From contig CAVUSO010000001.1 of NCBI GenBank assembly GCA_963744145.1, positions 5,536,001 through 5,600,000 of the forward strand: a stretch of 64,000 bases of DNA, read 5' to 3'. The notes beneath the pieces were generated by a model that worked only from the letters and a program-made list of their open reading frames with translations, searched no databases and had not been told where the DNA came from. The translations under genes and the position numbers were made by a program. This DNA comes from an uncultured cyanobacterium. GTDB taxonomy: Bacteria > Cyanobacteriota > Cyanobacteriia > Cyanobacteriales > CAWUOF01. Numbering within the stretch: the stretch's first letter is position 1; each line of letters opens with the position of its first letter. Positions 8,001 to 54,001 of the stretch are shown piece by piece.

Positions 8001-9385
8001 GAGATATTAATGGAGGTAATGAGGCTGGAGAATTAGCATTAGCACTCCTGTTTCGGCTCCAGAATAAGGAATTTAAAGCTAGTACATACAATTCAATCTA
8101 TTCGTTTATAAAACCCTGGAAATATCACATTCGGGGTTCGCTGAAACCTTTAGTTGAGGGATACCATAGCGGGTTGGAAAATGGTGCGCTAGAATACGCT
8201 GGCTACTCGGCTTGGAATTATTGCTATCTATCATTTTTTGCTGGTAAAGAACTATCAAGTTTAGAACAGGAGATGATCGAATATTGTCAAGCATTGGGAC
8301 AACTTAAACAAGTAGCCTACAATTATGTCAGAATTTTTCACCAATCAGTTTTAAATTTATTGGGTCAGAGTGAATCTCCTTGGCTAATTCAGGGAAAAGT
8401 ATATGATGAGCAAATCGTATTATCACAGCAAAAAGTAGACGATCTGTATGAACTTGCGGTGCTGTATATTAGCAAGCTCATACTTTGTTATCTTTTTGAA
8501 AAATGGGAATATGCTAAAGATATCGCAGACTCCACTAAGCAATATTTACCGGCAGCACCTGGGGCTTTTAAAGTTACAGTATTTCATTTCTATGACTCAC
8601 TGACCCAACTTGCTATGCGATCGGATACAACGAAAGAAGAACGAGAACAAATACAGCAAAGAGTCCAGGAAAATCAATCCAAATTGCAACATTGGGCAGA
8701 ATATGCGCCCATGAATTATTTGCATAAGTGGTATTTGGTAGAAGCTGAAAAATTTCGAGTTTTAGGAGAAAAAATAGCCTCCATAGAGCTATATGACAAA
8801 GCGATCGCCCTAGCCAAAGAAAACGGCTATATTCAAGAGGAATCTCTTGCTAATGAGCTGGCTGCTAAGTTTTACTGGGAATGGGGTAAGGAGAAAGTTG
8901 CTGCGGGCTATATGCAAGAAGCTTATTACTGTTATGCTCGTTGGGGTGCTAGAGCCAAGATTAATGATCTAGAAACTCGCTATCCTCACCTGCTTCAGCC
9001 GATCCTACAACAACCAAAAACTAATTTTCGTCTCCTAGAAACCCTGACTCAGATTACTCACTCTTCAAACCAAGTTGATTACTCCAGTATTTCTGATCTG
9101 TTGGATTTTACATCTGTGATCAAAGCAGCTCAAACAATCTCAAGTGAGATCCAACTAGATGAACTGCTCAAGCAACTCACCCAAATTATTCTCCAAAACT
9201 CCGGAGGTGACCAATGTGTGTTAGTTTTGCCCCAAGATGAAATTTGGCAGATTAGAGCTATCTCAACCTTGGAAACCACGGAAATTTGTTCAGAGTCATT
9301 AGATGATTATGCTAACGTTCCGGTCAAATTGATTCAATACGTTAAGCGAACCCAAACAGCGGTTCTGAAGCCACCCCAGCCCTAA
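5090..9385 (+). pseudogene. Paralogous Ser/Thr kinase / AAA ATPase / GAF protein, truncated inside the GAF domain by the IS200/IS605 end
   Basis: Collinear with the upstream paralogue up to IQYVKRTQ, then runs into IS end sequence (LKPPQP*); His kinase module absent; SPEQTGR changed to SPEQPGR. Confidence 0.85.
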
Positions 9386-10941
9386 AGGGACGGGGGTTCA
9401 AAATGCAATAATGCCTCTTCTTGGCTCTCCCAATTTGGTACAACATCCAAGACCTTAGCATCAGAATTTTGAACTTTCGCTGCGACTCGCTCTGACTCTG
9501 GGAATTTCCCAAAGGAAGAAGAAACTCGTCCTTCTACTCGCAAGTTAGTTTGGGTGACCTGTCTCCAAGCCGCATACAGGATCGGTTCCGAACCCAACCA
9601 AGCATCAATAGCTTGATTTGCTTGAAGCAGTTCATTTTCGTCAACAAATTTGGCAAGAAACGCTGAATATAAATCTCTCTGACAAAGAATTCCACAATCA
9701 CATTGATGGATTCTGTCGGAAAGATTCTTTTTCTTCACGTTGCCACATTGACAAGTTTGCGACAGTTTAGTTGCATAAGTTGAGAATTCAATCACCTTAG
9801 CACCAGCACTTTCAGCCCTGCGCTTTAGATGCGATACAAATTCCCCTGGTGCGCGTTTTCCTACCGACTTGCCGAATAATTTCTGAAAAGCTTTGTAGGA
9901 AAGTTTTTCTAATTTAACAGTATTACCTTGACGGAGAATTTCATTAACTAATTTTCCATGTAACGACTTTCGATGAGCCGCTAATTCTCGTTCTAGATTA
10001 GCCTTAGATGTTCTGGTTTGAAGATAGGTTTTGGAATTATTCCACCCTCTACATCCTTTTTTGACAGTTCCTTTTTTCGGTTTTCCTTCTTTGTCAATAA
10101 AATCCGGGTTGTAGTTGTGGGGATTATTCACTCTTCTAGACCGTTCCATCTTTCTTTGTAGTCGGCGAATTTCCTTATCCTTCGACTGCAATTCTGATGC
10201 GAACAGGGTTAATTTGGCTGAATCATCTCCCACAATAGCAATAGTAGATGGTCCAATATCTAGACCAACAGAACCATTACCAATTTTGTTCTTAGGCTTT
10301 TGAAATGGTTTGCCTTCAGCAACTAATTGAGCGTAGTAGAAAACCTTGCCATTAATTCGACGACGCACCAATCTAACGTATTTAACTCGACTGTTTAAGC
10401 CATGAGTTATTACTGGATCGTAGGTTGTTAAATATGGTTTTAATTTGAGATCACCCCAAACTAAGATTTCTTTCACCCATCTAATTCCAGTTTTATTGGT
10501 CTTGCCTTCTAAGGAATCAAGTTGATTTTTACCTTTAAACCGAACTTTCTTAGCTTTACCGAAAGCTACTCGGCTAGAGGCATTGAAGGCACGGCTTGCC
10601 AATTTTTGAGCGGTATTTGCGTCAATATGGTCGCTCAACCAAGAATTGCGAACAGTCGTACAATAAGAATGCAAATCATATTCGCTATATTTATATGCCT
10701 GATTTGCTTCTTTGAATGCTGCTGTTCTGGCCTTACCCTTTTTAAGCTTTCTGGCTTCTTGATATTTCTTAGATTGTTTAACCAGCTTTAGTCGCCGCAT
10801 TGCCTCTCCCAAGCAGGCGTTATAAAGTTGCCGACCCGCTTCAAATCTAGAATTTAAAACCCCAGCATCTTTGTCGGATACCACCAAAGGTATCTCAACA
10901 ATAAATGATGGGGTCTTAGTAGGTCTAGATTGGCGAGGCAT
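9382..10941 (-). CDS. tnpB: RNA-guided endonuclease TnpB (519 aa)
   Basis: RQLYNACL helix; RuvC-I VGLDIG; RuvC-II LEKLS; Zn ribbon SQTCQCG...HQCDCG; RuvC-III QRDLYSA. Confidence 0.92.
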   Translation of the reverse strand: MPRQSRPTKTPSFIVEIPLVVSDKDAGVLNSRFEAGRQLYNACLGEAMRRLKLVKQSKKYQEARKLKKGKARTAAFKEANQAYKYSEYDLHSYCTTVRNSWLSDHIDANTAQKLASRAFNASSRVAFGKAKKVRFKGKNQLDSLEGKTNKTGIRWVKEILVWGDLKLKPYLTTYDPVITHGLNSRVKYVRLVRRRINGKVFYYAQLVAEGKPFQKPKNKIGNGSVGLDIGPSTIAIVGDDSAKLTLFASELQSKDKEIRRLQRKMERSRRVNNPHNYNPDFIDKEGKPKKGTVKKGCRGWNNSKTYLQTRTSKANLERELAAHRKSLHGKLVNEILRQGNTVKLEKLSYKAFQKLFGKSVGKRAPGEFVSHLKRRAESAGAKVIEFSTYATKLSQTCQCGNVKKKNLSDRIHQCDCGILCQRDLYSAFLAKFVDENELLQANQAIDAWLGSEPILYAAWRQVTQTNLRVEGRVSSSFGKFPESERVAAKVQNSDAKVLDVVPNWESQEEALLHFEPPSL

Positions 10942-11223
10942 TGACTTATTAGTTAAACGATGTCACTATTATACGGTAGGCAATTACATACTAGCAATGG
11001 CAAATCACTTTAAATCAAATAACAATATCTTATATGTTTGTCAATATCACATTGTCTGGTGTCCCAAGTATCGACGCTTTCGTGTTAGTCAACGGTGTTG
11101 ATACTAGACTGAAAGAAATTATTCACGAAGTAGCTAAGCGAGAAGAAATGCGAAATTATTGAGCTTGAAGTCATGCCAGATCATGTTCATTTATTGATTA
11201 GCATTGACCCTCAATTTGGCGTC

Positions 11224-11252
11224 CGTAGGGGCGTATTGCAATACGCCCGTAC
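11224..11252 (+). repeat. GTAG-type REP-like palindrome inside tnpA
   Basis: CGTAGGGGCGTATTGCAATACGCCCGTAC; exact reverse-complement copy at 11419-11447. Confidence 0.85.
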
Positions 11253-11418
11253 TTAAAATTATGAAAGGTAGATCATCTCGATATTTGAGGCAAGAGTTTC
11301 CTTGGCTCAAAAGTAGACTACCTACCTTGTGGACTAATTCTTATTTTGTGGCTACTGTTGGCGGTGCGCCGTTAGATGTCGTCAAGAAATATATTGAAAA
11401 TCAGAAATGGAAACCAGG

Positions 11419-11447
11419 GTACGGGCGTATTGCAATACGCCCCTACG
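11419..11447 (-). repeat. GTAG-type REP-like palindrome at the tnpA 3' end
   Basis: GTACGGGCGTATTGCAATACGCCCCTACG, the exact reverse complement of 11224-11252. Confidence 0.85.
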
Positions 11448-11780
11448 GCGATTAAAATCGCCTGGTCCATTTCCTCCCCATGTCTAAAGCCAGGGGCTTC
11501 CATGTACGTTTTTCGGTGAAAAATTTCAAAACTTAGCGAGAGAATAATTGTCCTGCTGGAAATCTGAAACTGGGAGTTTGGATCTCGGATTTACCCATCT
11601 GGATGATCCCACGAAAATAAATTAATAGGGATATATTAGCTGGGGCGATCAGATCAGTTTTAGTCCTATATGCCCACTCGGACATAGTCCCAAGGTTATT
11701 TTGGTTTTATTGATTGAAACTGGAACATTTTTGTCTAATTTACGTCTTACTAGGATACTTTTTATACATAATTAGGGTAT

Positions 11781-13339: not shown

Positions 13340-13978
13340 CTAAATTCCTGCTCCAAAGGAAATAATTTGCTCTACTGTCAGGTTTAAATTGGGGAAAAAT
13401 CGAGACTTAATCAGATCATTCCCTGTAAAACTCTTAAACTCGTATTCCCGTTCCACTAAAATGCTAGACGCAATCACCAATTCTCCAATCGAGATCGTTG
13501 GTTGCTGAATTTTTGGATTCTTACGGTTAGGATAACGACTGACAGTAAATAGCGGATCAATAATCCATAACTCACTCACTCCAAAAGCAGCATACCACAG
13601 AGGTTTGTAACGATAATCCTCTTCCCAATTTGTGCTAACAATTTCAATCACAACGCTGGGAGGTACTCTCAAAACTGCTTCTGACTGGGTTTGTTGGTTC
13701 CAGGAATTCCGATCAATCGCAATCAGGTCAGGTTTACGAGTATCTTTAGGTCCTAACTCCAACACTGGTTTCGGATGGATTAGTAATCCCAATTGTTCAG
13801 TTCTGCTTTCCAATCTGAGTTCTACCAAAAGTTCAGACCGAAGATTTTCATGTTCTCCCGAAGGTTCAGCCATCGGTACTATAATTCCTTGAACAAGTTC
13901 GTATTCCTGTCCTTCTGGTAAGTCTAAACTTAGAAACTCTTCTACAGTGTAGGTGGGAAATTGGACAGAAGTAAGCAT
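13340..13978 (-). CDS. Uma2 family putative endonuclease
   Basis: YELVQGIIVPMAEPSGEH, RKPDL, VIEIVSTNWEEDY, ELWIIDP. Confidence 0.9.
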   Translation of the reverse strand: MLTSVQFPTYTVEEFLSLDLPEGQEYELVQGIIVPMAEPSGEHENLRSELLVELRLESRTEQLGLLIHPKPVLELGPKDTRKPDLIAIDRNSWNQQTQSEAVLRVPPSVVIEIVSTNWEEDYRYKPLWYAAFGVSELWIIDPLFTVSRYPNRKNPKIQQPTISIGELVIASSILVEREYEFKSFTGNDLIKSRFFPNLNLTVEQIISFGAGI

Positions 13979-25432: not shown

Positions 25433-25556
25433 CGTAAAACCCCGTCAGGTTTATATTTACCGTCCTGATGTTCCAGAGTGTTTGGATCGTCCGATTACAG
25501 TTAGTGGTGAACCTGTTTGGCCGGGATTTCTGTTAGACATGACTGAGATTTGGTAA
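25433..25556 (+). pseudogene. 3' remnant of a Uma2 gene, a diverged duplicate of 26046-26171
   Basis: Nucleotide similarity CGTCAGGTTTATATTTACCGTCCTGATGTTCCAGAG...GAGATTTGGTA. Confidence 0.8.
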
Positions 25557-25589: not shown

Positions 25590-26171
25590 ATGGTTTTATC
25601 TCCTTTAATCTTAAAAATGCCCTCAACTGTTCAAATGAATGATGAGCAGTTTTTTGACTTCTGTCAAATTAATCGAGATTTACGCATTGAAAGAACTAAA
25701 ACAGGAGAAGTGATTATTATGCCGCCCACTGGTTCAGAAACCGGAAACCGCAATGGTGATATCTTTGGTCAGTTGTGGGTGTGGGCAAAAAAAGATCAGA
25801 CTGGGATTACTTTTGATTCTAGTGCTGGATTTACTCTCTCTTCTGGTCAAACTCTTTCACCAGATGCGGCTTGGATTAAGTTAGAAAGGTGGAATGTTTT
25901 ATCACCTGAAGAACGAGAAAAATTTGCCCCGATTTGTCCTGATTTTGTGGTGGAATTAAGATCGCCTAGCGATAGTTTGAAATCCCTGAAGGAAAAAATG
26001 CAGGAGTATATTCAGGAGGGAGTGAAACTAGGTTTGTTAATTGACCGCAAACCTCGTCAGGTTTATATTTACCGTCCTGATGTTCCAGAGGAGTGTTTGG
26101 ATCATCCGACTACAGTTAGTGGGGAACCTGTTTTGCCGGGATTTGTGTTAGACTTGACGGAGATTTGGTAG
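25590..26171 (+). CDS. Uma2 family putative endonuclease
   Basis: IMPPTGSETG, FDSSAGF, SPDAAW, CPDFVVELRSPSD. Confidence 0.93.
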   Translation: MVLSPLILKMPSTVQMNDEQFFDFCQINRDLRIERTKTGEVIIMPPTGSETGNRNGDIFGQLWVWAKKDQTGITFDSSAGFTLSSGQTLSPDAAWIKLERWNVLSPEEREKFAPICPDFVVELRSPSDSLKSLKEKMQEYIQEGVKLGLLIDRKPRQVYIYRPDVPEECLDHPTTVSGEPVLPGFVLDLTEIW

Positions 26172-38316: not shown

Positions 38317-38746
38317 TTTCCTTACCTTAATGATTATTTTACCTATTTTAACCTACTGCTTTCTTTTTGGGCGATCGCCGTGCTAATTTTGTCCCAACCA
38401 GAAATTATAGTTTTGTCCAGCACAGTACCCCGGGAAATTTGCCATATTAGCGATCGCTATCCGATGAGAACATAGACAAGGAAATACTATATATACCTAT
38501 GATTTATTACACGCAGAAGAAGAGCCAATGATCATTGTGATGGTCATCATTTTGGTGATATGTGTCACCAAGACAAGTGGGATGCAATCACCTCAATCGA
38601 AAGGAAGAATCACATGTAAGCATAGACCTGGATCATCGTCTGAACTAGATTTTAGCTTCATGATCAGAGCATAGGTGAATCAATCAGTAAACCTAATTCC
38701 TCTAAAAATAATTCTAAAAATATCACCCAAGGAGAACATCAAAGTC

Positions 38747-39427
38747 ATGAATATCAAACTACTCGCCACCTTAACCTTAGTCAGCACCGCAGCTCTTCTA
38801 GTTGCCCAAAAACCCGCCAGTGCGATTAACTTCACCAGTGGTGGTACAGCCGTTAGTGGACAAGGTTTAGAAACCAGTGTAGTTGGGGCTACTACCATTG
38901 ATTTAAACAATGGTTTCCCCACTACCGGAAATGCTACCTTCACTGGCTACAACTCTACTAGCTTAGTTACAGGTGGAAAAGTTAATGACCATGGTAACCC
39001 TGCGGGTGACAACTCCCAATATATGACCATTACTCCAGTTGGCTATAATACCGCAGGTGCTACAGGTAGTGTCACGATTAACTTTGCTAATGCGATCGAC
39101 TACTTCGGAATGTACTGGGGTTCTGCGGATAACTACAACCAAATCTCTTTTTATAACGGTAGTACCCTGTTAGCGACCTACGGTGGTGGTGATTTAGCTG
39201 GAAAAGCCGATGGTAGCTGGACAGGTGCTGAAGCTAACTTCTTTGCTAACTTCTATGCTGACCCTGGTCAAGACTTCACCTCAGTGAAACTTTCAGCCAC
39301 AGGTGTTGCTTTTGAAAGTGATAACTATGCTTACAAAGAAGCTGTTCCTGAACCCGCTACTATTCTAGGAACCATCGGGTTTGGTGCTTTTGCTGCTTAT
39401 TCTCGCAAACGGAAACAACAAGCTTAA
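38747..39427 (+). CDS. PEP-CTERM exosortase-dependent surface protein (Npun_F0296-like), copy 1
   Basis: AAGGAG RBS; signal peptide; DYFGMYWGSAD, AFESDN; VPEP, transmembrane segment and RKRK tail. Confidence 0.9.
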   Translation: MNIKLLATLTLVSTAALLVAQKPASAINFTSGGTAVSGQGLETSVVGATTIDLNNGFPTTGNATFTGYNSTSLVTGGKVNDHGNPAGDNSQYMTITPVGYNTAGATGSVTINFANAIDYFGMYWGSADNYNQISFYNGSTLLATYGGGDLAGKADGSWTGAEANFFANFYADPGQDFTSVKLSATGVAFESDNYAYKEAVPEPATILGTIGFGAFAAYSRKRKQQA

Positions 39428-39944: not shown

Positions 39945-40584
39945 TCATTATAGCTAATTTTATGGTAATTTCTGCACCAGATATCAATATCATAGTAGAT
40001 ATTTGTGATCGCGATCGCATTTTCGTGGATATTCCCGCTAGTCCTAATAGTCTTGACTAACAAGCAAAAAGCAGAAGTATGATTAATTTGTTTGTCCAAT
40101 GCTTCTGCCCACAACCCAAACGAGATGCTTTATATATATGAGTTTAATTTCCCAGATCAGTTCAGAGGATAGTTATCAATGTTCTAAATCCTCTACAACA
40201 CAATAGTTGTAGTCTGTTTTTAAAGTTACGATGAAATTCTGTAAAGAATCAGTAAAAGTGCTAACGCTTCATTATTCTTAAAAAGCAAATAATTCGCCAA
40301 TCCTTTACAACATAATGCTTTCAGCCTTAATTAAAATTTTATTTAGTGAAAAAATTTAAGTGTATTTAAGATTACATTTAAAGTCAAGATAAAGCAAACT
40401 GTAAAGAGTCTGTAAAAACATCCAAAAGTCGGATCAACGCCAAACAAATGACATACAGTTAAGTTGTGGGAAGAAAAGTTCATTAAAAACTAGACCAAAC
40501 AAAAGTTTTTATGTGCCCATGACCATCAACCTAATAGCTCTAAAAATAATTCTAAAAATATCACCCAAGGAGAACATCAAAGTC

Positions 40585-41265
40585 ATGAATATCAAACTAC
40601 TCGCCACCTTAACCTTAGTCAGCACCGCAGCTCTTCTAGTTGCCCAAAAACCCGCCAGTGCGATTAACTTCACCAGTGGTGGGACAGCGGTTAGTGGACA
40701 AGGTTTAGAAACCAGTGTAGTTGGGGCCACTACCATTGATTTAAACAATGGTTTCCCCACTACCGGAAATGCTACCTTCACTGGCTACAACTCTACCAGC
40801 TTAGTTACAGGTGGAAAAGTTAATGACCATGGTAACCCTGCGGGTGACAACTCCCAATATATGACCATTACTCCAGTTGGCTATAAAAATAGTGGTGCCA
40901 CAGGTAGTGTCACGATTAACTTTGCTAATGCGATCGACTACTTCGGAATGTACTGGGGTTCTGCGGATAACTACAACCAAATCTCTTTTTATAACGGTAG
41001 TACCCTGTTAGCGACCTACGGTGGTGGTGATTTAGCTGGAAAAGCCGATGGTAGCTGGACAGGTTCAGAAGCTAACTTCTTTGCTAACTTCTATGCTGAC
41101 CCTGGTCAAGACTTCACCTCAGTGAAACTTTCAGCCACAGGTGTTGCTTTTGAAAGTGATAACTATGCTTACAAAGAAGCTGTTCCTGAACCCGCTACTA
41201 TTCTAGGAACCATCGGGTTTGGTGCTTTTGCTGCTTATTCTCGCAAACGGAAACAACAAGCTTAA
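40585..41265 (+). CDS. PEP-CTERM exosortase-dependent surface protein (Npun_F0296-like), copy 2
   Basis: As copy 1; differs at NTA/KNS and at one A/S position. Confidence 0.9.
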   Translation: MNIKLLATLTLVSTAALLVAQKPASAINFTSGGTAVSGQGLETSVVGATTIDLNNGFPTTGNATFTGYNSTSLVTGGKVNDHGNPAGDNSQYMTITPVGYKNSGATGSVTINFANAIDYFGMYWGSADNYNQISFYNGSTLLATYGGGDLAGKADGSWTGSEANFFANFYADPGQDFTSVKLSATGVAFESDNYAYKEAVPEPATILGTIGFGAFAAYSRKRKQQA

Positions 41266-42580: not shown

Positions 42581-43102
42581 TCAATCATCTTCATCTGGTG
42601 GAGCAGTAAGGATTTCAAATACTAGAGAACCACCAAATTCTTTACGATCATCGATCGCGCCTACTCTGGTGGAAATTTCTTTAGCTTTTTCTACTTCTCC
42701 TAACCGGGCCCAGATTAAACCAGATGCAGCATAAGCATTTAGATAAAGTCGGATTTGGGAATCATCTTTGCGACTGACTAGAATAGGTTGTAGTTGATCC
42801 CATTCTTGGGGTAATTGGGCTAATTTTTGTACTTTAGTTAGAACTGTTTCTGCAATCCGCAATGCTAGCTGGTTATTATGTTTGTAAAAGAAGTAGCGGT
42901 AAGCCGACACTAGCACATCTAGGTTATCCTCTGCTAGTTCTAATGCTTCATTGATGTATTTTTCCGATAATGCAGTATCTTCCCAGTTGTCAATTGCCAG
43001 CTTTAGTAATTCCTTAACTTCCGCTGGAGCTGCATACCAGGATAAGGAGTTGCGATCGCTATCTTCCCTGGGGAAAATATTTTCGTCAGATTGAGATGTC
43101 AT
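42581..43102 (-). CDS. Hypothetical helical (TPR-like) protein
   Basis: GAGG RBS; VLVSAYRYFFYK, YLNAYAASG, RLGEVEKA. Confidence 0.7.
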   Translation of the reverse strand: MTSQSDENIFPREDSDRNSLSWYAAPAEVKELLKLAIDNWEDTALSEKYINEALELAEDNLDVLVSAYRYFFYKHNNQLALRIAETVLTKVQKLAQLPQEWDQLQPILVSRKDDSQIRLYLNAYAASGLIWARLGEVEKAKEISTRVGAIDDRKEFGGSLVFEILTAPPDEDD

Positions 43103-43472
43103 AAAAAATCCTCATTAATTATCAATCGCTAATTATTATAACCCCCGAATAATTTGAAAACCTAACTATCTGTAGTCCGCATTACTGACCCAGTAAGTTT
43201 GTAGATGTGCAGTGCCAGGTATCGGAAAGATAGAAAGCGTGAAAGGTGCGATCGCGTTTTCCCTTAAATTATAATTAGAACTGCCGATCGCATTGCTATT
43301 TAATAATGATCTTGTTTTTGGGAGATATCGGCAAAGAAGGGCGAAGCATTCGGATATAATATTAACGAGTTTGAATCAATAATTATCGCCCGAATGCTTC
43401 GCCCCTACAGGGAATTGAACCGGATTGGATGATAATTTATTTATAGCGAACCTAAATGAAACGTGAACAGAA

Positions 43473-43495: not shown

Positions 43496-43854
43496 TTTTG
43501 TCCGGATTCGTAGGGGCAAAGCATTCCGGCAGATCAGTGATGGGATAAATCCAGAAAACTATGACCGGAATGCTTTGCCCTCGGCCAATTATGAATCAAA
43601 CAGATTAACCATAACAGGAATATTGGATTTATCCTAAACGATCGCCCGCTCATCAATTATATATTTTCGATCGCGACCAAGTTATCTTTAAAATTCGCAC
43701 GCTAGGGAATATATGACACAGAAATCTTAGCATGATTGTGAACAATAGGCGATCGCTAATTTATCAGTACAGGATCGCTCAATAGGGATCAGTTAAGATT
43801 TTTTTTGGGAGATATCGGCGAAGAAGGGCGAAGCATTCGGATATAATATTAACG

Positions 43855-43878
43855 CCCTTCGACTACGCTCAGGGTAAA
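43855..43878 (+). repeat. 24-bp small dispersed repeat-like insertion, unit 2
   Basis: CCCTTCGACTACGCTCAGGGTAAA, absent at this site in units 1 and 4. Confidence 0.85.
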
Positions 43879-44342
43879 GGTTTAAGTTATAAATGATCGC
43901 CCGAATGCTTCGCCCCTACAGGGAATTGAACCGAATTGGATGATAATTTATTTATAGCGAACCTAAATGAAACATCAACAGAATTTTGTCCGGATTCGTA
44001 GGGGCAAAGCATTCCGGCAGATCAGTGATGGGATAAATCCAGAAAACTATGACCGGAATGCTTTGCCCTCGGCCAATTATGAATCAAACAGATTAACCAT
44101 AACAGAAATATTGGATTTATCCTAAACGATCGCCCGCTCATCAATCCGATCTTTTCGATCGCGACCAAGTTATCTTTAAAATTCGCACGCTAGGGAATAT
44201 ATGACACAGAAATCTTAGCATGATTGTGAACAATAGGCGATCGCTAATTCATCAGTACAGGATCGCTCAATAGGATTCAGTTAAGATTTTTTTTGGGACA
44301 TATCGGCAAAGAAGGGCGAAGCATTCGGATATAATATTAACG

Positions 44343-44366
44343 CCCTTCGACTACGCTCAGGGTAAA
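44343..44366 (+). repeat. 24-bp small dispersed repeat-like insertion, unit 3
   Basis: Identical to 43855-43878. Confidence 0.85.
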
Positions 44367-45219
44367 GGTTTAAGTTATAAATGATCGCCCGAATGCTTCG
44401 CCCCTACAGGGAATTGAACCGGATTGGATGATAACTTATTTATAGCGAACCTAAATAAAACATAAACAGAATTTTCTCCGGATTCGTAGGGGCAAAGCAT
44501 TCCGGCAGATCAGTGATGGGATAAATCCAGAAAACTATGACCGGAATGCTTTGCCCTCGAGCCAATTATGAATCAAACAGATTAACCATAACAGAAATAT
44601 TGGATTTATCCTAAACGATCGCCCGCCCATCAATTCTAGATTTTCGATCGCGACCAAGTTATCTTTAAAATTCGCACGCTAGGGAATATATGACACAGAA
44701 ATCTTAGCATGATTGTGAACAATAGGCGATCGCTAATTCATCAGTACAGGATCGCTCAATAGGATTCAGTTAAGATTTTTTTTGGGACATATCGGCAAAG
44801 AAGGGCGAAGCATTCGGATATAATATTAACGAGTTTGAGTCAATAATTATCGCCCGAATGCTTCGCCCCTACAGGGAATTGAACCGGATTGGATTATAAC
44901 TTATTTATAGCGAACCTAAATAAAACATAAACAGAATTTTCTCCGGATTCGTAGGGGCAAAGCATTCCGGCAGATCAGTGATGGGATAAATCCAGAAAAC
45001 TATGACCGGAATGCTTTGCCCTCGGCCAATTATGAATCAAACAGATTAACCATAACAGAAATATTGGATTTATCCTAAACGATCGCCCGCCCATCAATTC
45101 TAGATTTTCGATCGCGACAAATTATCTTTAAAATATTAGCCTGCGATCGCACTTAAATCTGAGATATGAGATGATTAAATCCACTAAGACAATTTTCTGA
45201 AAGCTTTATATGTTATAAT

Positions 45220-45771
45220 TCACAAGTCTCGATGCGAGAGAAGAGACAACCAGCACCCCCACCACAATCCTCTCACCCACGTCAACCCTACGCCAACAGC
45301 AAAAGGGGTACGGCCAAACAACAAACGCAGGATAGGGAGATGGCCTTCGGGAGATTTCTCTGAGAAGGTGCAGTCATTGTAGTATATCCATTCGTTTTCT
45401 TTCCTCCATCCGAGGCGATCGCCAAAAGCTTCCCAGATTTTCTGATCATAGTTTCGGGTTCCCCCCAGACTTTGATAGATGCGCTTTTGGACAGAAAAGC
45501 CAAAATGACCTTTACTATAATATACCCAAAGTTGATCAATTGTGCGAAGGTCTTCACAGGGAAAATTATCGATATGTTCGACATCTAGCCAACCTTCTTC
45601 TTGTCGCCCCATGACCTCACACATTTTTGTACCTGTTTCCTGATCAGCTTCTTGCCATTTCCCTGCGGCTAATAAGCTTTCTAAATTGCGGTAATCTATT
45701 CCTTTTGCTGACAGCAATTGAGGAGGACGACTGGTATTAGTGGGCTGTAGTAATGCTAACCAATCTTGCAT
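45220..45771 (-). CDS. GUN4-like domain; C-terminal part of a frameshifted caspase-kinase-GUN4 gene
   Basis: GIDYRNLESLLAAGKWQEADQET, FPCEDLRTIDQLWVYYSKGHFGFSVQK, FGDRLGWR, PEGHLP; begins with the kinase tail MQDWLALL. Confidence 0.9.
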   Translation of the reverse strand: MQDWLALLQPTNTSRPPQLLSAKGIDYRNLESLLAAGKWQEADQETGTKMCEVMGRQEEGWLDVEHIDNFPCEDLRTIDQLWVYYSKGHFGFSVQKRIYQSLGGTRNYDQKIWEAFGDRLGWRKENEWIYYNDCTFSEKSPEGHLPILRLLFGRTPFAVGVGLTWVRGLWWGCWLSLLSHRDL

Positions 45772-47305
45772 CGATCGCCATACCTTTTAAAATAGCTTCC
45801 CTGGTGCGATCGCTAATACCTGTTGGTAACAATAAATCAGCATTAAAATACTTCCGCTCTACCGAACCGGTCGGAACTTGTCCAGTTACAGCATAGTAAA
45901 GAGAAGCAGCCAGAGTATAAATATCTACCGTTACCTTACGACTATCTTCATGATGCTCTTGCTGTTCCCAAGGGGAAAAATCTACATTGGCTGAATAGTG
46001 GGAACTCGTACCAGTCGGAATAATTTCGCAAGCAATCCCAAAATCAATTAAAATCGCTTTATTCTGAGCCAAGAGAATATTACCAGGATGAACATCTCGA
46101 TGTAATATACCTGCTTGGTGAACTTGAACTAAAGCAGCACCAATTTGACTAATATAACCGACAGCTTCGCTTTCTGATAAAGGACCTTGCTGTCGCACTA
46201 AATTAAATAAAGTTTCACCGGGAACAAAATCCATTACTAAACAGGGAGTCCCGTTTTCTTTAAAAAAATCAATTACTTGCACAATGGAAGGATGAGCATT
46301 TTGTTGGCAAAATTTCGCGAGAAATTGTCCTTCTCTCGTAAATCTTTTGACAAATTTATCATGGTTCGGATCTAGTTTTTGCACAGCATGAGGTGTTTTT
46401 AACACTACCAACTTATTCAGAACCAAATGTCGTGCTTTGTAGGTAATTCCGAAACCACCTCTTCCCAAAATCCCTTCGATTATATATTCAGGACGATTTT
46501 GTAATTTGTATCCTTGACGCCAAAAAGATGGAGGTTGAGAAGATTGCTTACCTCTACCATCCCAAAAGTGAATTGCTGTGCCAGAGTGGGAAGATATTGG
46601 ACGCTGGGGATAAGTTTTGAATTTCGGATGATGATCAAACTCTCGCGCTACGGCTGCCTCAATTTCATAACTGTTAATATTAAAACCCACATCATAAAAT
46701 TCTGGATTAAGCACTTTTTTCAAAAGATGAGTCAGCACCCCATGACCATCTACATCTAGGGATGATTCCGCATCTCTACAAGATGCAATAATTGAGCGCT
46801 TGATTCCAGGATTGGCTTGTTTAAAAATCTCTTGAGTTGTTAACCTACCACTATGACAACAATCTAACCAGATCATCTGCTCTGTTACCTGACTTTTGGC
46901 TAATTGGGTCACCAACCAGTCAAATTTCACACCCAAAATTTGGTGGTCTTGGCAATTTGTATCACTCCCACAGAGATAGCCAAATTCCTCGTCAAATTCA
47001 GTCTTGACTAAACCGTGTCCTGCAAAAAACAGCAATGCTGTCTGGGTCCCATCTGGTGGTTTCACGAATAGTTCATAGATCGCATTCTGGAGTGTTTTTA
47101 CATGGACAATCCCTTTTTCATCAGCCGTAAATGTGCCATCAGTACAGGTTTCCGGTAGTAGCGTCACCTCAAATCGCCCATAATCTCTCAGAATTTCCGC
47201 GATCGCTTCTGCATCGAGAGGGGCATTTTCTAAATGCTGCGCTTTTCCTTTACCCCTAAAGTTCGGATAACGGTTAATACCGACTACTAATGCTTTTCGC
47301 GTCAT
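45737..47305 (-). CDS. Caspase-family (peptidase C14) plus Ser/Thr kinase protein, frameshifted before the GUN4 domain
   Basis: KALVVGIN, FAGHG and LDCCHSG dyad; GRGGFG, HRDVHPGN, IDFG; last kinase helix broken at GMAID. Confidence 0.9.
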   Translation of the reverse strand: MTRKALVVGINRYPNFRGKGKAQHLENAPLDAEAIAEILRDYGRFEVTLLPETCTDGTFTADEKGIVHVKTLQNAIYELFVKPPDGTQTALLFFAGHGLVKTEFDEEFGYLCGSDTNCQDHQILGVKFDWLVTQLAKSQVTEQMIWLDCCHSGRLTTQEIFKQANPGIKRSIIASCRDAESSLDVDGHGVLTHLLKKVLNPEFYDVGFNINSYEIEAAVAREFDHHPKFKTYPQRPISSHSGTAIHFWDGRGKQSSQPPSFWRQGYKLQNRPEYIIEGILGRGGFGITYKARHLVLNKLVVLKTPHAVQKLDPNHDKFVKRFTREGQFLAKFCQQNAHPSIVQVIDFFKENGTPCLVMDFVPGETLFNLVRQQGPLSESEAVGYISQIGAALVQVHQAGILHRDVHPGNILLAQNKAILIDFGIACEIIPTGTSSHYSANVDFSPWEQQEHHEDSRKVTVDIYTLAASLYYAVTGQVPTGSVERKYFNADLLLPTGISDRTREAILKGMAIDARLVSITTAH

Positions 47306-47350: not shown

Positions 47351-47487
47351 CAATACGGTTCAGTTAAGATTTTTTTTTGGAAATCTCGGCGAAGAACTGG
47401 GCGAAGCATTCGGATATAAAATTAACGAATTTAAGTGGTAAATTATCGCCCGAATGCTTCGCCCCTACAGTGAAATGAACTGTATTG
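47351..47487. mobile_element. 137-bp MITE with terminal inverted repeats, internal REP-type hairpin and 10-bp target site duplication
   Basis: TIRs CAATACGGTTCA and TGAACTGTATTG; AATTATATGA on both sides (47341-47350, 47488-47497); internal GGGCGAAGCATTCGG...CCGAATGCTTCGCCCCTAC. Confidence 0.9.
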
Positions 47488-47500
47488 AATTATATGACTT

Positions 47501-48115
47501 CTACCGACCTGCGGCAAATATCTGTTCGGCAGTCAAATTTAGATCTGGAAATGTTGGTGAGATCAGGGGTTCTTTTCCCCTAAACTGCTGTGCTTGATAA
47601 GTACCATCGACTAACTGATAAATTGTGACCACAGGTTGTTTAGATGAGCCGATGTAACGTTTTCCTCCCAATCCTAGATAATCTACGATCCAATACTCTA
47701 GAATACCTAATGCTTCGTAGTCTTCCACTTTCCGAGCATAGTCATTTTGCCAATTGGTACTGACCACCTCTACTACCAATTTCACAGATTTACCTAGTGT
47801 AATCACTGGTTCAGTTTTCCACAATGGCTCATTTGCCAAAGCTGTCTGATCCAGAATCACCACATCAGGTCTAAAAGCTGAATTTTGACCTAATGGTTTA
47901 ATTAGGCATTTCATGGGAATAAACCAAGACAAATTCAGCCGTTCAATTGCTACGTTAAGCTTACGATTAATTAACCCTGCTACCTGCTCATGAAGTCCAG
48001 TTGGTTCCAAGTCAATTAGTTCTCCGTCGATTAATTCGTAGTGTACATTATCTAAATAACTAGCAATAAATGCCTCAAAGTTCAGGCTACCTGCATTAAT
48101 AGTGGCTGTAACCAT
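47501..48115 (-). CDS. Uma2 family putative endonuclease
   Basis: YELIDGEL, RPDV, VVEVVSTNWQNDY, EYWIVDY. Confidence 0.92.
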   Translation of the reverse strand: MVTATINAGSLNFEAFIASYLDNVHYELIDGELIDLEPTGLHEQVAGLINRKLNVAIERLNLSWFIPMKCLIKPLGQNSAFRPDVVILDQTALANEPLWKTEPVITLGKSVKLVVEVVSTNWQNDYARKVEDYEALGILEYWIVDYLGLGGKRYIGSSKQPVVTIYQLVDGTYQAQQFRGKEPLISPTFPDLNLTAEQIFAAGR

Positions 48116-48283
48116 ATCAGACTTGTCCTTTTACTGTCAAAATTAACATCCTAGACTACTGTCAGATCAGGAGCGATCGCGTTTTCCCTTAAATTATAAT
48201 TAGAACTGGCGATCGCCATGCCATTTCCTAACGACTGGTTTTTCTGAGCTAGATTAACTATAACAGGAATATATTATTTATCC

Positions 48284-53356: not shown

Positions 53357-54001
53357 ATGACTGCAATCCAAACACCACTAATAACGGATACCTGGGTAAC
53401 AACTACTTGGGCAGAATATATCGAAATCATTGAAAAATTAGACTCTGAAAAAGGTAAATATTACTATTACAATGGACAAGCAAGGATAGAAATGTTACCA
53501 TTTGGTCCAGATCATGCTGATGATCATGGTATTATGATTATCTTAATCAATTTATTTGGTATGATTAAGAATATTCCGATGCGACTGTTAGTTAATTGTA
53601 GTTACCGTAAAACAGGAGTTAGGGAAGCACAACCAGATATATCTTACTATCTGAGAAAACGTACACAACTATCACCTCACGGTAGTTCGGTAGTCAATTT
53701 AGCTCTAACACCACCTCCTGATTTAGTGATTGAAATTGCTGATACTTCTTTCCTGGATGATTTGGGTCTAAAACGGATGCTGTACGAAGAGCTAGGGGTA
53801 TCTGAATATTGGATAGTAAATATAAAAAAACTTCAAATCATCGCTTTTAAAATTATTGCAGATCGAGGCAGTGAAAGGATTAGTGAGTCGGAAATTATCC
53901 CGGGATTAGCAATTGCTCTTTTAGAAGAAGGATTACAACGTAGTCGTCAAATGGATAATACAGAAGTAGGTAACTGGTTTTTTCAGAAAGTTAGCAATTG
54001 A
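53357..54001 (+). CDS. Uma2 family putative endonuclease
   Basis: QPDISYY, PPDLVIEIA, YEELGVSEYWIV. Confidence 0.9.
   Translation: MTAIQTPLITDTWVTTTWAEYIEIIEKLDSEKGKYYYYNGQARIEMLPFGPDHADDHGIMIILINLFGMIKNIPMRLLVNCSYRKTGVREAQPDISYYLRKRTQLSPHGSSVVNLALTPPPDLVIEIADTSFLDDLGLKRMLYEELGVSEYWIVNIKKLQIIAFKIIADRGSERISESEIIPGLAIALLEEGLQRSRQMDNTEVGNWFFQKVSN

Follow-up and report, generated by a model that had tools for sequence, protein, structure and literature searches.

The closest described relatives of the arrangement considered here are the procA-tnpA_REP pairs of marine Prochlorococcus and Synechococcus, for which Laurenceau et al. (bioRxiv 10.1101/2020.03.09.984088) proposed an enzyme-driven 'diversifying recombination' and later stated that the phylogenies neither support nor refute causality. 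These authors reported that the closest cyanobacterial relatives of TnpA_REP, a transposase associated with repetitive extragenic palindromic (REP) sequences, do not lie beside lanthipeptide genes, and named no partner for them; the accessible portion of Quentin et al. (2018; PMC6006769) gives no REP-like sequence for TnpA_REP subclass 2.1. A second comparison is offered by diversity-generating retroelements (DGRs), which, as described in PMC7517822 and PMC7159879, act on signalling and conflict proteins (kinase, caspase, TIR, CHAT and vWA) and vary their ligand-binding C-termini between fixed DNA boundaries. In the available part of one of these papers (Kaur et al. 2020; PMC7159879), GUN4 is placed where cyanobacterial conflict systems otherwise have the FGS domain diversified by DGRs, and no transposase is mentioned there. 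Here we analyze a 64-kb stretch of DNA from an uncultured cyanobacterium (the window: 64,000 nt, contig CAVUSO010000001.1, positions 5,536,001 to 5,600,000), and in it the 3' end of a GUN4-domain gene, where a variable, G/T-rich junction is followed by a short cassette that encodes a protein tail and a stop codon in each of the three frames. With a probability of roughly 0.55, we consider this site to be the 3' junction of a non-canonical (fused) GUN4-domain family that carries a conserved, transposase-linked DNA module, the junction having been broken and refilled and the three frames having been kept by selection.

The GUN4 3' junction and its three-frame cassette

The site comprises the following features:

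45220..45771, minus strand: GUN4-domain open reading frame (ORF), 183 aa (Pfam GUN4, 3e-46, residues 21-153)
45335..45342, minus strand: left boundary word CATCTCCC, formed by the His-Leu-Pro codons of GHLP; similarity between close relatives stops past its 'CC'
45247..45333, minus strand: variable G/T-rich junction, 87 nt (A7 C13 G36 T31), encoding ILRLLFGRTPFAVGVGLTWVRGLWWGCWL
45206..45246, minus strand: three-frame cassette, 41 nt, reading SLLSHRDL, LFSRIETCEL and SSLASRLVNYNI, each followed by a stop

The codons for EGHLP lie at 45348-45334 (minus strand). An earlier note, made from the letters alone, had described 45206..45345 as an A-depleted segment followed by a cassette terminating in all three frames; on rechecking, its coordinates and letters, its count of seven A in the G/T-rich 87 nt at 45333-45247 and its stops at 45220, 45213 and 45206 (codons 45220-45222, 45213-45215 and 45206-45208) were all as described. 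The A-poor composition of the junction is not due to chance: seven A in 87 nt has a binomial P of 1e-7 against the 32% A of the remaining ORF, and among the 63,914 segments of this length scanned on each strand of the 64 kb, only 25 contain seven A or fewer, all of them overlapping and all at the junction, which is thus the most A-poor, G/T-rich stretch of the window. Three-frame stops in 41 nt of AT-rich DNA would be unremarkable taken alone, and are noteworthy because they are conserved.

A phmmer search of 1.84 billion representative proteins returned 5,319 relatives at E <=0.001, from the best 150 of which we obtained 142 new representatives that are mutually <=50% identical; a word-indexed search for longer homologues found 2,364, of which 120 were examined. 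Tails were sorted by strict patterns, and a GHLP-type motif was required within the last 90 residues. This motif was present in 123 of the 142 representatives, with tails of the LLSRRDL type (25), the FSRVETCKL type (25), the SSLASRLVKCNI type (21) or other types (52), and in 111 of the 120 longer proteins (21, 31, 47 and 12 in the same order); by eye, many of the other tails are read-through or degenerate forms. The three tail types that the earlier note had ascribed to cyanobacterial GUN4 proteins are therefore all represented among the 123 and 111 motif-bearing homologues. A second variant of the cassette is likewise found in natural proteins in all three translations (LLSRKDL, FSRAKTCNL and SLAQRLVTCKI).

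The suggestion that the tail is conserved as DNA also gained support, since a scan of one genome per species for the 19-base core of the cassette found at least 123 sites at which the core is read in all three frames. With the longest upstream ORF taken as the gene, the listed sites use frame 0 (SSLASRLV..) 39 times, frame 1 (FSRVETC..) 53 times and frame 2 (LLSRRDL) 31 times, and a GHLP-type motif lies upstream of the core in 106 of the 123. The listed sites are cyanobacterial with three exceptions: a Sericytochromatia site whose tail is identical to that of a Cyanobacteriota metagenome-assembled genome, a site from an 'uncultured bacterium', and L055, an Archaeoglobus contig in which the core lies in an unrelated open frame and is probably a chance match. 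After removal of short ORFs and duplicates, all three frames are closed within 51 nt in 99 of 114 loci. Alignment columns 26-45 carry 1.19 and 1.00 bits where they are untranslated (the LLSRRDL class) versus 1.45 and 0.83 bits where they are translated, figures that, coming from loci chosen by pattern, are valid only outside the core. Because the pattern forces these 19 bases, we also examined 11 GUN4 ends from plasmid hits and locus flanks that lay outside the pattern selection; nine of them match the core with <=6 mismatches, versus 6 of 213 random pieces. Taken at the level of the alignments, conservation of the cassette is independent of the frame in which it is translated.

Since translation that enters the module in any frame meets a tail and then a stop, every junction length gives a complete protein, and natural proteins use the three frames about equally. 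A one-step frame switch in Microcoleus illustrates the frame-buffering role that the earlier note had attributed to the cassette: proteins P0335 and P0369 end ...GFGWVCSLASR.VSCNL, and their close relative P0338, with the same start, ends ...GLGGSVLSHREL, a tail of another class. Cassettes without stops also occur inside genes, where they are read into a linker and a further GUN4 domain (L047:2501-2700; P0001, P0033, P0063 and P0066), so that in tandem GUN4 arrays each domain has its own cassette, in whichever of the three frames.

Across the family the junction ranges from 13 to 198 nt (median 52; 102 distinct loci), with 27, 30 and 45 loci in the three length classes modulo 3. Its composition is G.37, T.32, A.17 and C.14, C being depleted as much as A, and the G/T bias is equal or stronger at third codon positions, next to a domain with normal codon periodicity. 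Because the bias ignores codon position, it is a property of the DNA strand and not of the encoded peptide. The junction also has a higher G4Hunter-type score than the domain (0.73 vs 0.21), reaching >=1.0 in 37 of 101 segments. The left edge, too, is defined at the DNA level, by the word CAC-CTC-CC: the leucine of GHLP is encoded by CTC in 64 of 98 related loci versus 15% of the other Leu codons in the same domains (P 6e-29), the third base of the Pro codon tracks the composition of the junction, and the similarity of close relatives ends at the second Pro base.

In four sets of loci (L025/L028/L051, L026/L038/L069, L073-L075 and L021/L080) the flanks on both sides are 81-94% identical and the junctions are unrelated in sequence and length, and often in frame. 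L073-L075 are three tandem genes of one Dolichospermum genome; L026 and L038 are collinear and ~92-95% identical over ~3 kb and differ in the junction, and this collinearity marks them as orthologous loci and not shuffled paralogues. For 299 proteins we compared identity over the 120 residues preceding the junction with sameness of the junction itself. The junction was the same in 195 of 201 pairs at >=95% domain identity, in 20 of 34 at 90-95%, in 10 of 111 at 85-90% and in about none below 85%. As judged from these comparisons, the junction is replaced in an all-or-none manner over roughly 5-15% divergence of the neighbouring domain. Among 39,878 pairs, no exchange of junctions between divergent genes or paralogues was seen apart from a few artefacts produced by the ungapped measure, and a local template was not apparent, since exact matches of >=13 nt within the same 5-kb locus were found for 3 of 58 junctions versus 4 of 58 controls. 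Internal direct repeats of >=8 nt were present in 23 of 99 junctions versus a shuffled expectation of 11.1, and the junctions of L069 and L024 contain clear tandem duplications. Such switch-like, unshared and rarely copied junctions seem to be formed afresh in one piece, over evolutionary time and not within a culture.

These results bear out the earlier note's expectation that close relatives differ in the length and frame of the DNA following GHLP, which is seen both in the loci with similar flanks and in the protein pairs, and lend no support to rapid hypermutation, given the 195 of 201 unchanged pairs. The note had also named an identical segment in close strains as evidence against diversification, and this part of its refuting conditions was observed at >=95% domain identity.

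A conserved DNA module and its convergent transposase-like gene

Ungapped column information is ~0 at 2 nt 5' of the core and 0.3-1.8 bits from there to about +125. A module of ~125 nt, of which the cassette forms the opening ~41 nt, is conserved as DNA; it has a sharp 5' edge inside the ORF and extends ~85 nt past the last of the three stops. In many loci a convergent ORF of ~255-275 aa ends 80-135 nt from the start of the cassette, a candidate for the machinery that the earlier note overlooked. Its product matches Pfam Y1_Tnp (8e-19, 68 bits, cut-off 23), the family of Y1/HUH transposases, scores 73.3 bits against NCBIfam REP_Tyr_transpos, under the cut-off of 80, and has the motifs NH[VLI]H, GHFWE and YIH[AG]NP intact in 12 of 12 long copies. 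The HUH and Tyr motifs fit subclass 2.1 of the TnpA_REP or REP-associated tyrosine transposase (RAYT) enzymes, as that subclass is defined in the accessible portion of PMC6006769.

By tblastn, a transposase-like remnant is kept in 30 of the 76 loci with >=400 nt downstream; 13 of these remnants reach back to residue 1, and none lacks the C-terminus, the part nearest the cassette. Starting instead from the transposase-like protein, we examined six plasmid loci of cyanobacteria: in five of them the gene converges on a GUN4-like ORF terminating in the cassette (the annotations are CHAT, WD40, AAA-like or GUN4), and the sixth holds an N-terminal transposase fragment without the cassette-proximal end. 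Plasmid copies of the transposase-like gene were seen on Nostoc punctiforme pNPUN02 and in N. flagelliforme. The transposase-like family comprises 829 proteins at E <=0.001; the best 120 of these 829 are 67-92% identical across orders, and all names given among them are cyanobacterial.

The convergent gene shares the transposase fold and family (Pfam Y1_Tnp) and one sharp end with IS200/IS605 insertion sequences (IS), and differs from them in having neither a second conserved end nor the high-identity copies typical of an active IS. No conservation was seen when the 420 nt beyond the transposase start codon were aligned for 11 loci, and no terminal or inverted repeats were found around the gene in six loci. 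A standard IS200/IS605 element was therefore rejected on the score against the NCBIfam IS200 model (22 bits vs a cut-off of 55), the missing second end and the missing terminal repeats. No solved structure matched the transposase-like protein by phmmer, Rfam at E <=10 gave only four sub-threshold chance matches in 44800-45600, and phmmer detected no partner resembling the window's 173-aa ORF (42581-43102) among 528 downstream ORFs. In several Nostocales loci the module is truncated at recurrent points (L036, L045 and L100 at ~+33; L039, L073, L074, L091 and L129 at ~+55) by repeats, for example ...GGGAAGTCAAAAG... and ...TAAGTCTGAATCAGGAT..., that look like separate small mobile repeats.

The procA system is alike in several respects: the convergent TnpA_REP belongs to a subclass that is extended at the C-terminus (RAYT group 1 / subclass 2.1), the spacing is fixed and the DNA between the two genes is conserved, indels concentrate diversity in the stretch from a conserved coding motif to this intergenic DNA, the boundary is G-rich or prone to form G-quadruplexes (G4), and many transposase fragments retain the C-terminal end. 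The two differ in that the GUN4 partner is a sensor domain ending large signalling proteins whereas procA encodes a lanthipeptide precursor, and in that the GUN4 module starts inside the ORF and supplies a tail and stop in three frames, which is unreported in the procA text. Convergence, spacing, conserved DNA, an indel stretch and C-terminal fragments were all found in the related loci, whereas the window retains only the proximal 58 nt of the module and a 27-nt relic. With the proteobacterial RAYT/TnpA_REP systems the module shares a Y1/HUH single-stranded DNA (ssDNA) enzyme with the class-2 motifs NHVH, W[EQ] and Y..NP (as given in the accessible literature) and a short conserved DNA element present at many gene ends, beside the gene and elsewhere; unlike REP elements, it lacks a convincing hairpin, reaches into the end of a coding sequence and accompanies a single protein domain, and the convergent protein, at 73 bits, falls under the NCBIfam RAYT cut-off of 80.

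Explanations for the turnover of the junction

On the reading that we favor, the module would be the cognate DNA site of the subclass-2.1 transposases, and the G-rich, single-strand-prone junction would be repeatedly broken and then refilled. The likely agent would be an HUH nuclease, acting in cis or, as we assume from the behavior of REP elements, in trans; alternatively, replication may slip at the pyrimidine and G runs. Three-frame coding would be retained by selection because the frames keep changing. Strand-biased mutagenesis is an established phenomenon, and the G/T bias of the junction could have arisen if the coding strand is often single-stranded and undergoes C-to-T and A-to-G deamination.

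Several observations weigh against this reading. The pattern by which loci were chosen itself forces the 19 core bases. A REP-like site would predict a conserved hairpin, and none was found: the RNAalifold consensus energy of the module is -0.13 kcal/mol, a candidate 7-bp stem at module ~+27 to +48 is paired in 68% of cells versus 66% when shuffled (covariation 0.178 vs 0.142), and ssDNA folds of three loci on both strands were no better than shuffles (z -0.65 to +0.69). L025 and L051 share a transposase truncation at +373 and yet have unrelated junctions, and L026/L038/L069 and L073-L075, in which tblastn detects no transposase remnant, have replaced junctions nonetheless. Turnover where the neighbouring transposase is truncated or undetectable means that a copy in cis is not needed, and the copy in trans is only assumed. 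A TnpA_REP-type enzyme is thus a putative agent at the junction. The junction is also stable among very close relatives, and any turnover process must consequently be slow or rare. Finally, the authors of the procA preprint withdrew their causal claim in a post-submission note (10.1101/2020.03.09.984088).

It is possible, although we think it rather unlikely, that no dedicated machinery exists and that an unconstrained loop simply drifts by slippage and indels at G and pyrimidine runs, with the transposase as a passenger neighbour and the cassette conserved only since lineages visit all three frames, each of which needs the terminal helix. Such drift would fit the turnover in places where the adjacent transposase gene has been truncated or lost, the excess of internal direct repeats (23 of 99 vs 11.1) together with the tandem duplications in L069 and L024, the stability of junctions at >=95% identity, and the terminal helix predicted by AlphaFold2 (AF2) for two tail types. 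It does not readily account for conservation that continues ~85 nt past the last stop and is equal whether translated or not, for a strand-specific bias at all codon positions and a left word defined at the DNA level, for turnover that is all-or-none and not gradual, or for a pairing with one transposase subclass that holds in both directions and at fixed spacing.

A stronger form of the proposal, which we regard as unlikely and put forward tentatively, is that a domesticated HUH nuclease of the TnpA_REP type makes programmed single-strand breaks at the boundary of the module, that the gap is refilled with largely untemplated G/T-rich sequence and that the cassette rescues all frames, which would amount to a bacterial junctional diversification of a ligand-facing loop. 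V(D)J joining likewise places a variable-length, G-rich filler between two fixed DNA boundaries, uses a gene of domesticated-transposase type and randomises the frame. The likeness is one of function only: the GUN4 cassette would rescue all three frames whereas two thirds are lost in V(D)J joining, and turnover of the GUN4 junction occurs on an evolutionary time scale. If a nuclease does act in this way, the ligand-facing loop of conflict and signalling proteins would be diversified in multicellular cyanobacteria, and a function would be provided for the orphan subclass-2.1 transposases and, by extension, for the procA case.

Less likely still is a selfish element, autonomous with the transposase and REPIN-like without it, that has lodged at GUN4 3' ends, the tails and stops being by-products and the junctions differing simply because the element inserted at different places in a gene end that already varied. 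The Y1 family of the transposase, its many decayed copies, several per genome and some on plasmids, the sharp 5' edge of the module and the near-random use of frames (39/53/31 among the listed sites) would all be expected of such an element. Against it stand the lack of terminal repeats and of a second conserved end within 420 nt in 11 loci, decay that always spares the cassette-proximal part, the collinear orthologues L026 and L038 that differ in the junction alone, and divergent GUN4 proteins that have correspondingly diverged tails, as would be the case for an old and integral part of the gene. Moreover, one of the 123 listed sites (L055) is shown to lie outside a GUN4-type gene end, a count to be read with the 16 other listed sites that have no recognisable GHLP-type motif, several of them on short contigs, for which GUN4 status is not established.

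The DGR-like retroelement proposed in the earlier note, in which a reverse transcriptase (RT) and template acting in trans would mutagenize adenines and the cassette would be a homing signal resembling an IMH (initiation of mutagenic homing) sequence, is largely refuted: although the segment is A-poor, an FGE-type ORF directly follows the GUN4 gene of L004 and the same architectures carry DGR-diversified FGE/CLec domains in cyanobacteria (accessible portions of PMC7517822 and PMC7159879), no RT or Avd was found at E 1e-5 among the 48 window ORFs of >=120 aa, the 64 kb hold no template copy (blastn-short returned the self match only, a repeat search likewise revealed none and the best ungapped, DGR-style candidate has 22 non-A mismatches in 59 positions), C is depleted as much as A with no A-specific pattern, relatives show far slower turnover by replacement of the whole segment with changes of length and frame, which DGRs do not produce, the target domain is GUN4 and not a CLec or Ig-like fold, and relatives have a Y1 transposase gene, not an RT gene, next to the cassette.

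Searches of the accessible literature found no paper linking GUN4 with RAYT, TnpA_REP or a tyrosine transposase, nothing relevant for GUN4 with frameshift, IS200 or hypervariability or for Y1/HUH in cyanobacteria, and only two incidental matches to the tail strings, which are not discussed there. The elements that appear to be new are thus the three-frame tail cassette and the GUN4 partnership, and the closest published case, itself tentative, is procA-tnpA_REP. If the reading that we favor is correct, the DNA has been kept so that translation in any of the three frames yields a usable C-terminus followed by a stop, a built-in tolerance of frameshifts, and frame-changing events at the junction would be frequent enough to be selected for. 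It would also provide a partner for the large and highly conserved cyanobacterial subclass 2.1 of TnpA_REP, which has no known cognate repeat in the accessible portion of PMC6006769, and a second, independent case of the contested 'diversifying recombination' of procA/TnpA_REP. As the GUN4 case occurs in culturable, genetically tractable Nostoc and Anabaena, the question of diversifying recombination becomes testable. For annotation, GUN4-type genes with any of the three tails should be regarded as complete and not as frameshifted.

The split gene, the relic module and other features of the window

In addition to the features listed above, the locus contains:

45737..47305, minus strand: upstream ORF, 522 aa, with caspase (Pfam Peptidase_C14, 1.6e-11) and Ser/Thr kinase (Pfam Pkinase, 3.6e-34) domains
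45189..45246, minus strand: surviving proximal module, 58 nt (cassette plus ~17 nt), by blastn
43496..45134, no strand assigned: tandem array, period 488 nt, 3.4 copies (Tandem Repeats Finder score 2919, 95% matches)
43209..43236, minus strand: distal module relic, a 19-27 nt match, antisense to the last codons (..VPGI..) of the transposase-like gene

Membership of the window ORF in GUN4 (PF05419) is clear at 157.5 bits versus a curated cut-off of 29.2, and the protein aligns to the Gun4 structures 1z3x and 1y6i up to residue 153 (E 2e-25 to 2e-22). The AF2 model (built, like the second one, from a 43-sequence alignment) has a mean predicted local distance difference test (pLDDT) of 84, with a confident GUN4 core, a low-confidence loop at 151-166 and a helix at 167-178 (pLDDT ~70). 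The models cover two of the three tail classes, the LLSHRDL tail of the window protein and the SSLASRLV tail of P0212, in which a low-confidence loop is followed by a C-terminal helix at 173-188 with pLDDT >90. The predictions fit a cassette that supplies a terminal helix in at least two frames, and are not proof of function.

The 522-aa kinase ORF and the GUN4 ORF are in different frames and overlap by 35 nt (45737-45771). The gene looks split between the kinase and GUN4 by a small deletion, because a paralogue on the same contig (P0292) reads straight across the equivalent of the frame change (...KGMEIDAVNRPQNMQKWLDLL...). The putative deletion comprises ~20-odd nt and lies between two ATGCA words. 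The split gene seems to be a pseudogene or a two-piece gene.

The module in the window is likewise a relic: the transposase gene is gone, an array is inserted and the gene is split. Ten related modules match the window by blastn from 45253/45246 to 45197/45189 at 84-89% identity and then break off, and the distal relic matches module ~+106 to +124 of L061, L126 and L057 at 89-100% identity. Between the two remnants lie a 66-nt repeat and the 488-nt-period array, the inserted repeats covering 1.9 kb. No Y1 gene occurs among the 48 window ORFs of >=120 aa, and tblastn with the transposase-like protein gave no meaningful match (the best, at E 4.3, lies elsewhere in the window). The array, which involves the repeat families D1-D3, D8 and D9, lies inside the former module and is not part of the system. 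It is made of hairpin-bearing units that resemble miniature inverted-repeat transposable elements, single pieces of which flank the caspase-kinase-GUN4 gene at 43312-43472 and 47351-47532; the 66-nt direct repeat (43244-43309 and 48169-48234) brackets the whole region.

On a plasmid of Nostoc edaphicum (L004:1174-3004), an ORF of the SUMF1/FGE type lies 65 nt beyond a GUN4 gene whose cassette is degenerate. SUMF1/FGE is a domain type diversified by DGRs, and GUN4-FGE fusions occur in homologues P0079, P0107 and P0119.

Elsewhere in the window, a 519-aa ORF at 9382-10941 (minus strand) has a Cas12f1-like TNB domain (TnpB-like) with no adjoining Y1 transposase, and a perfect 30-nt inverted repeat with a 166-nt spacer (11223-11448) lies just downstream of it. 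Two 250-aa ORFs (38675-39427 and 40513-41265), located 1.8 kb apart and 98% identical in DNA, have no Pfam match. Four ORFs belong to the Uma2 family of putative restriction endonucleases (13340-13978, 25590-26171, 47501-48115 and 53357-54001), and a partial duplicate is present near one of them at 25437-25555.

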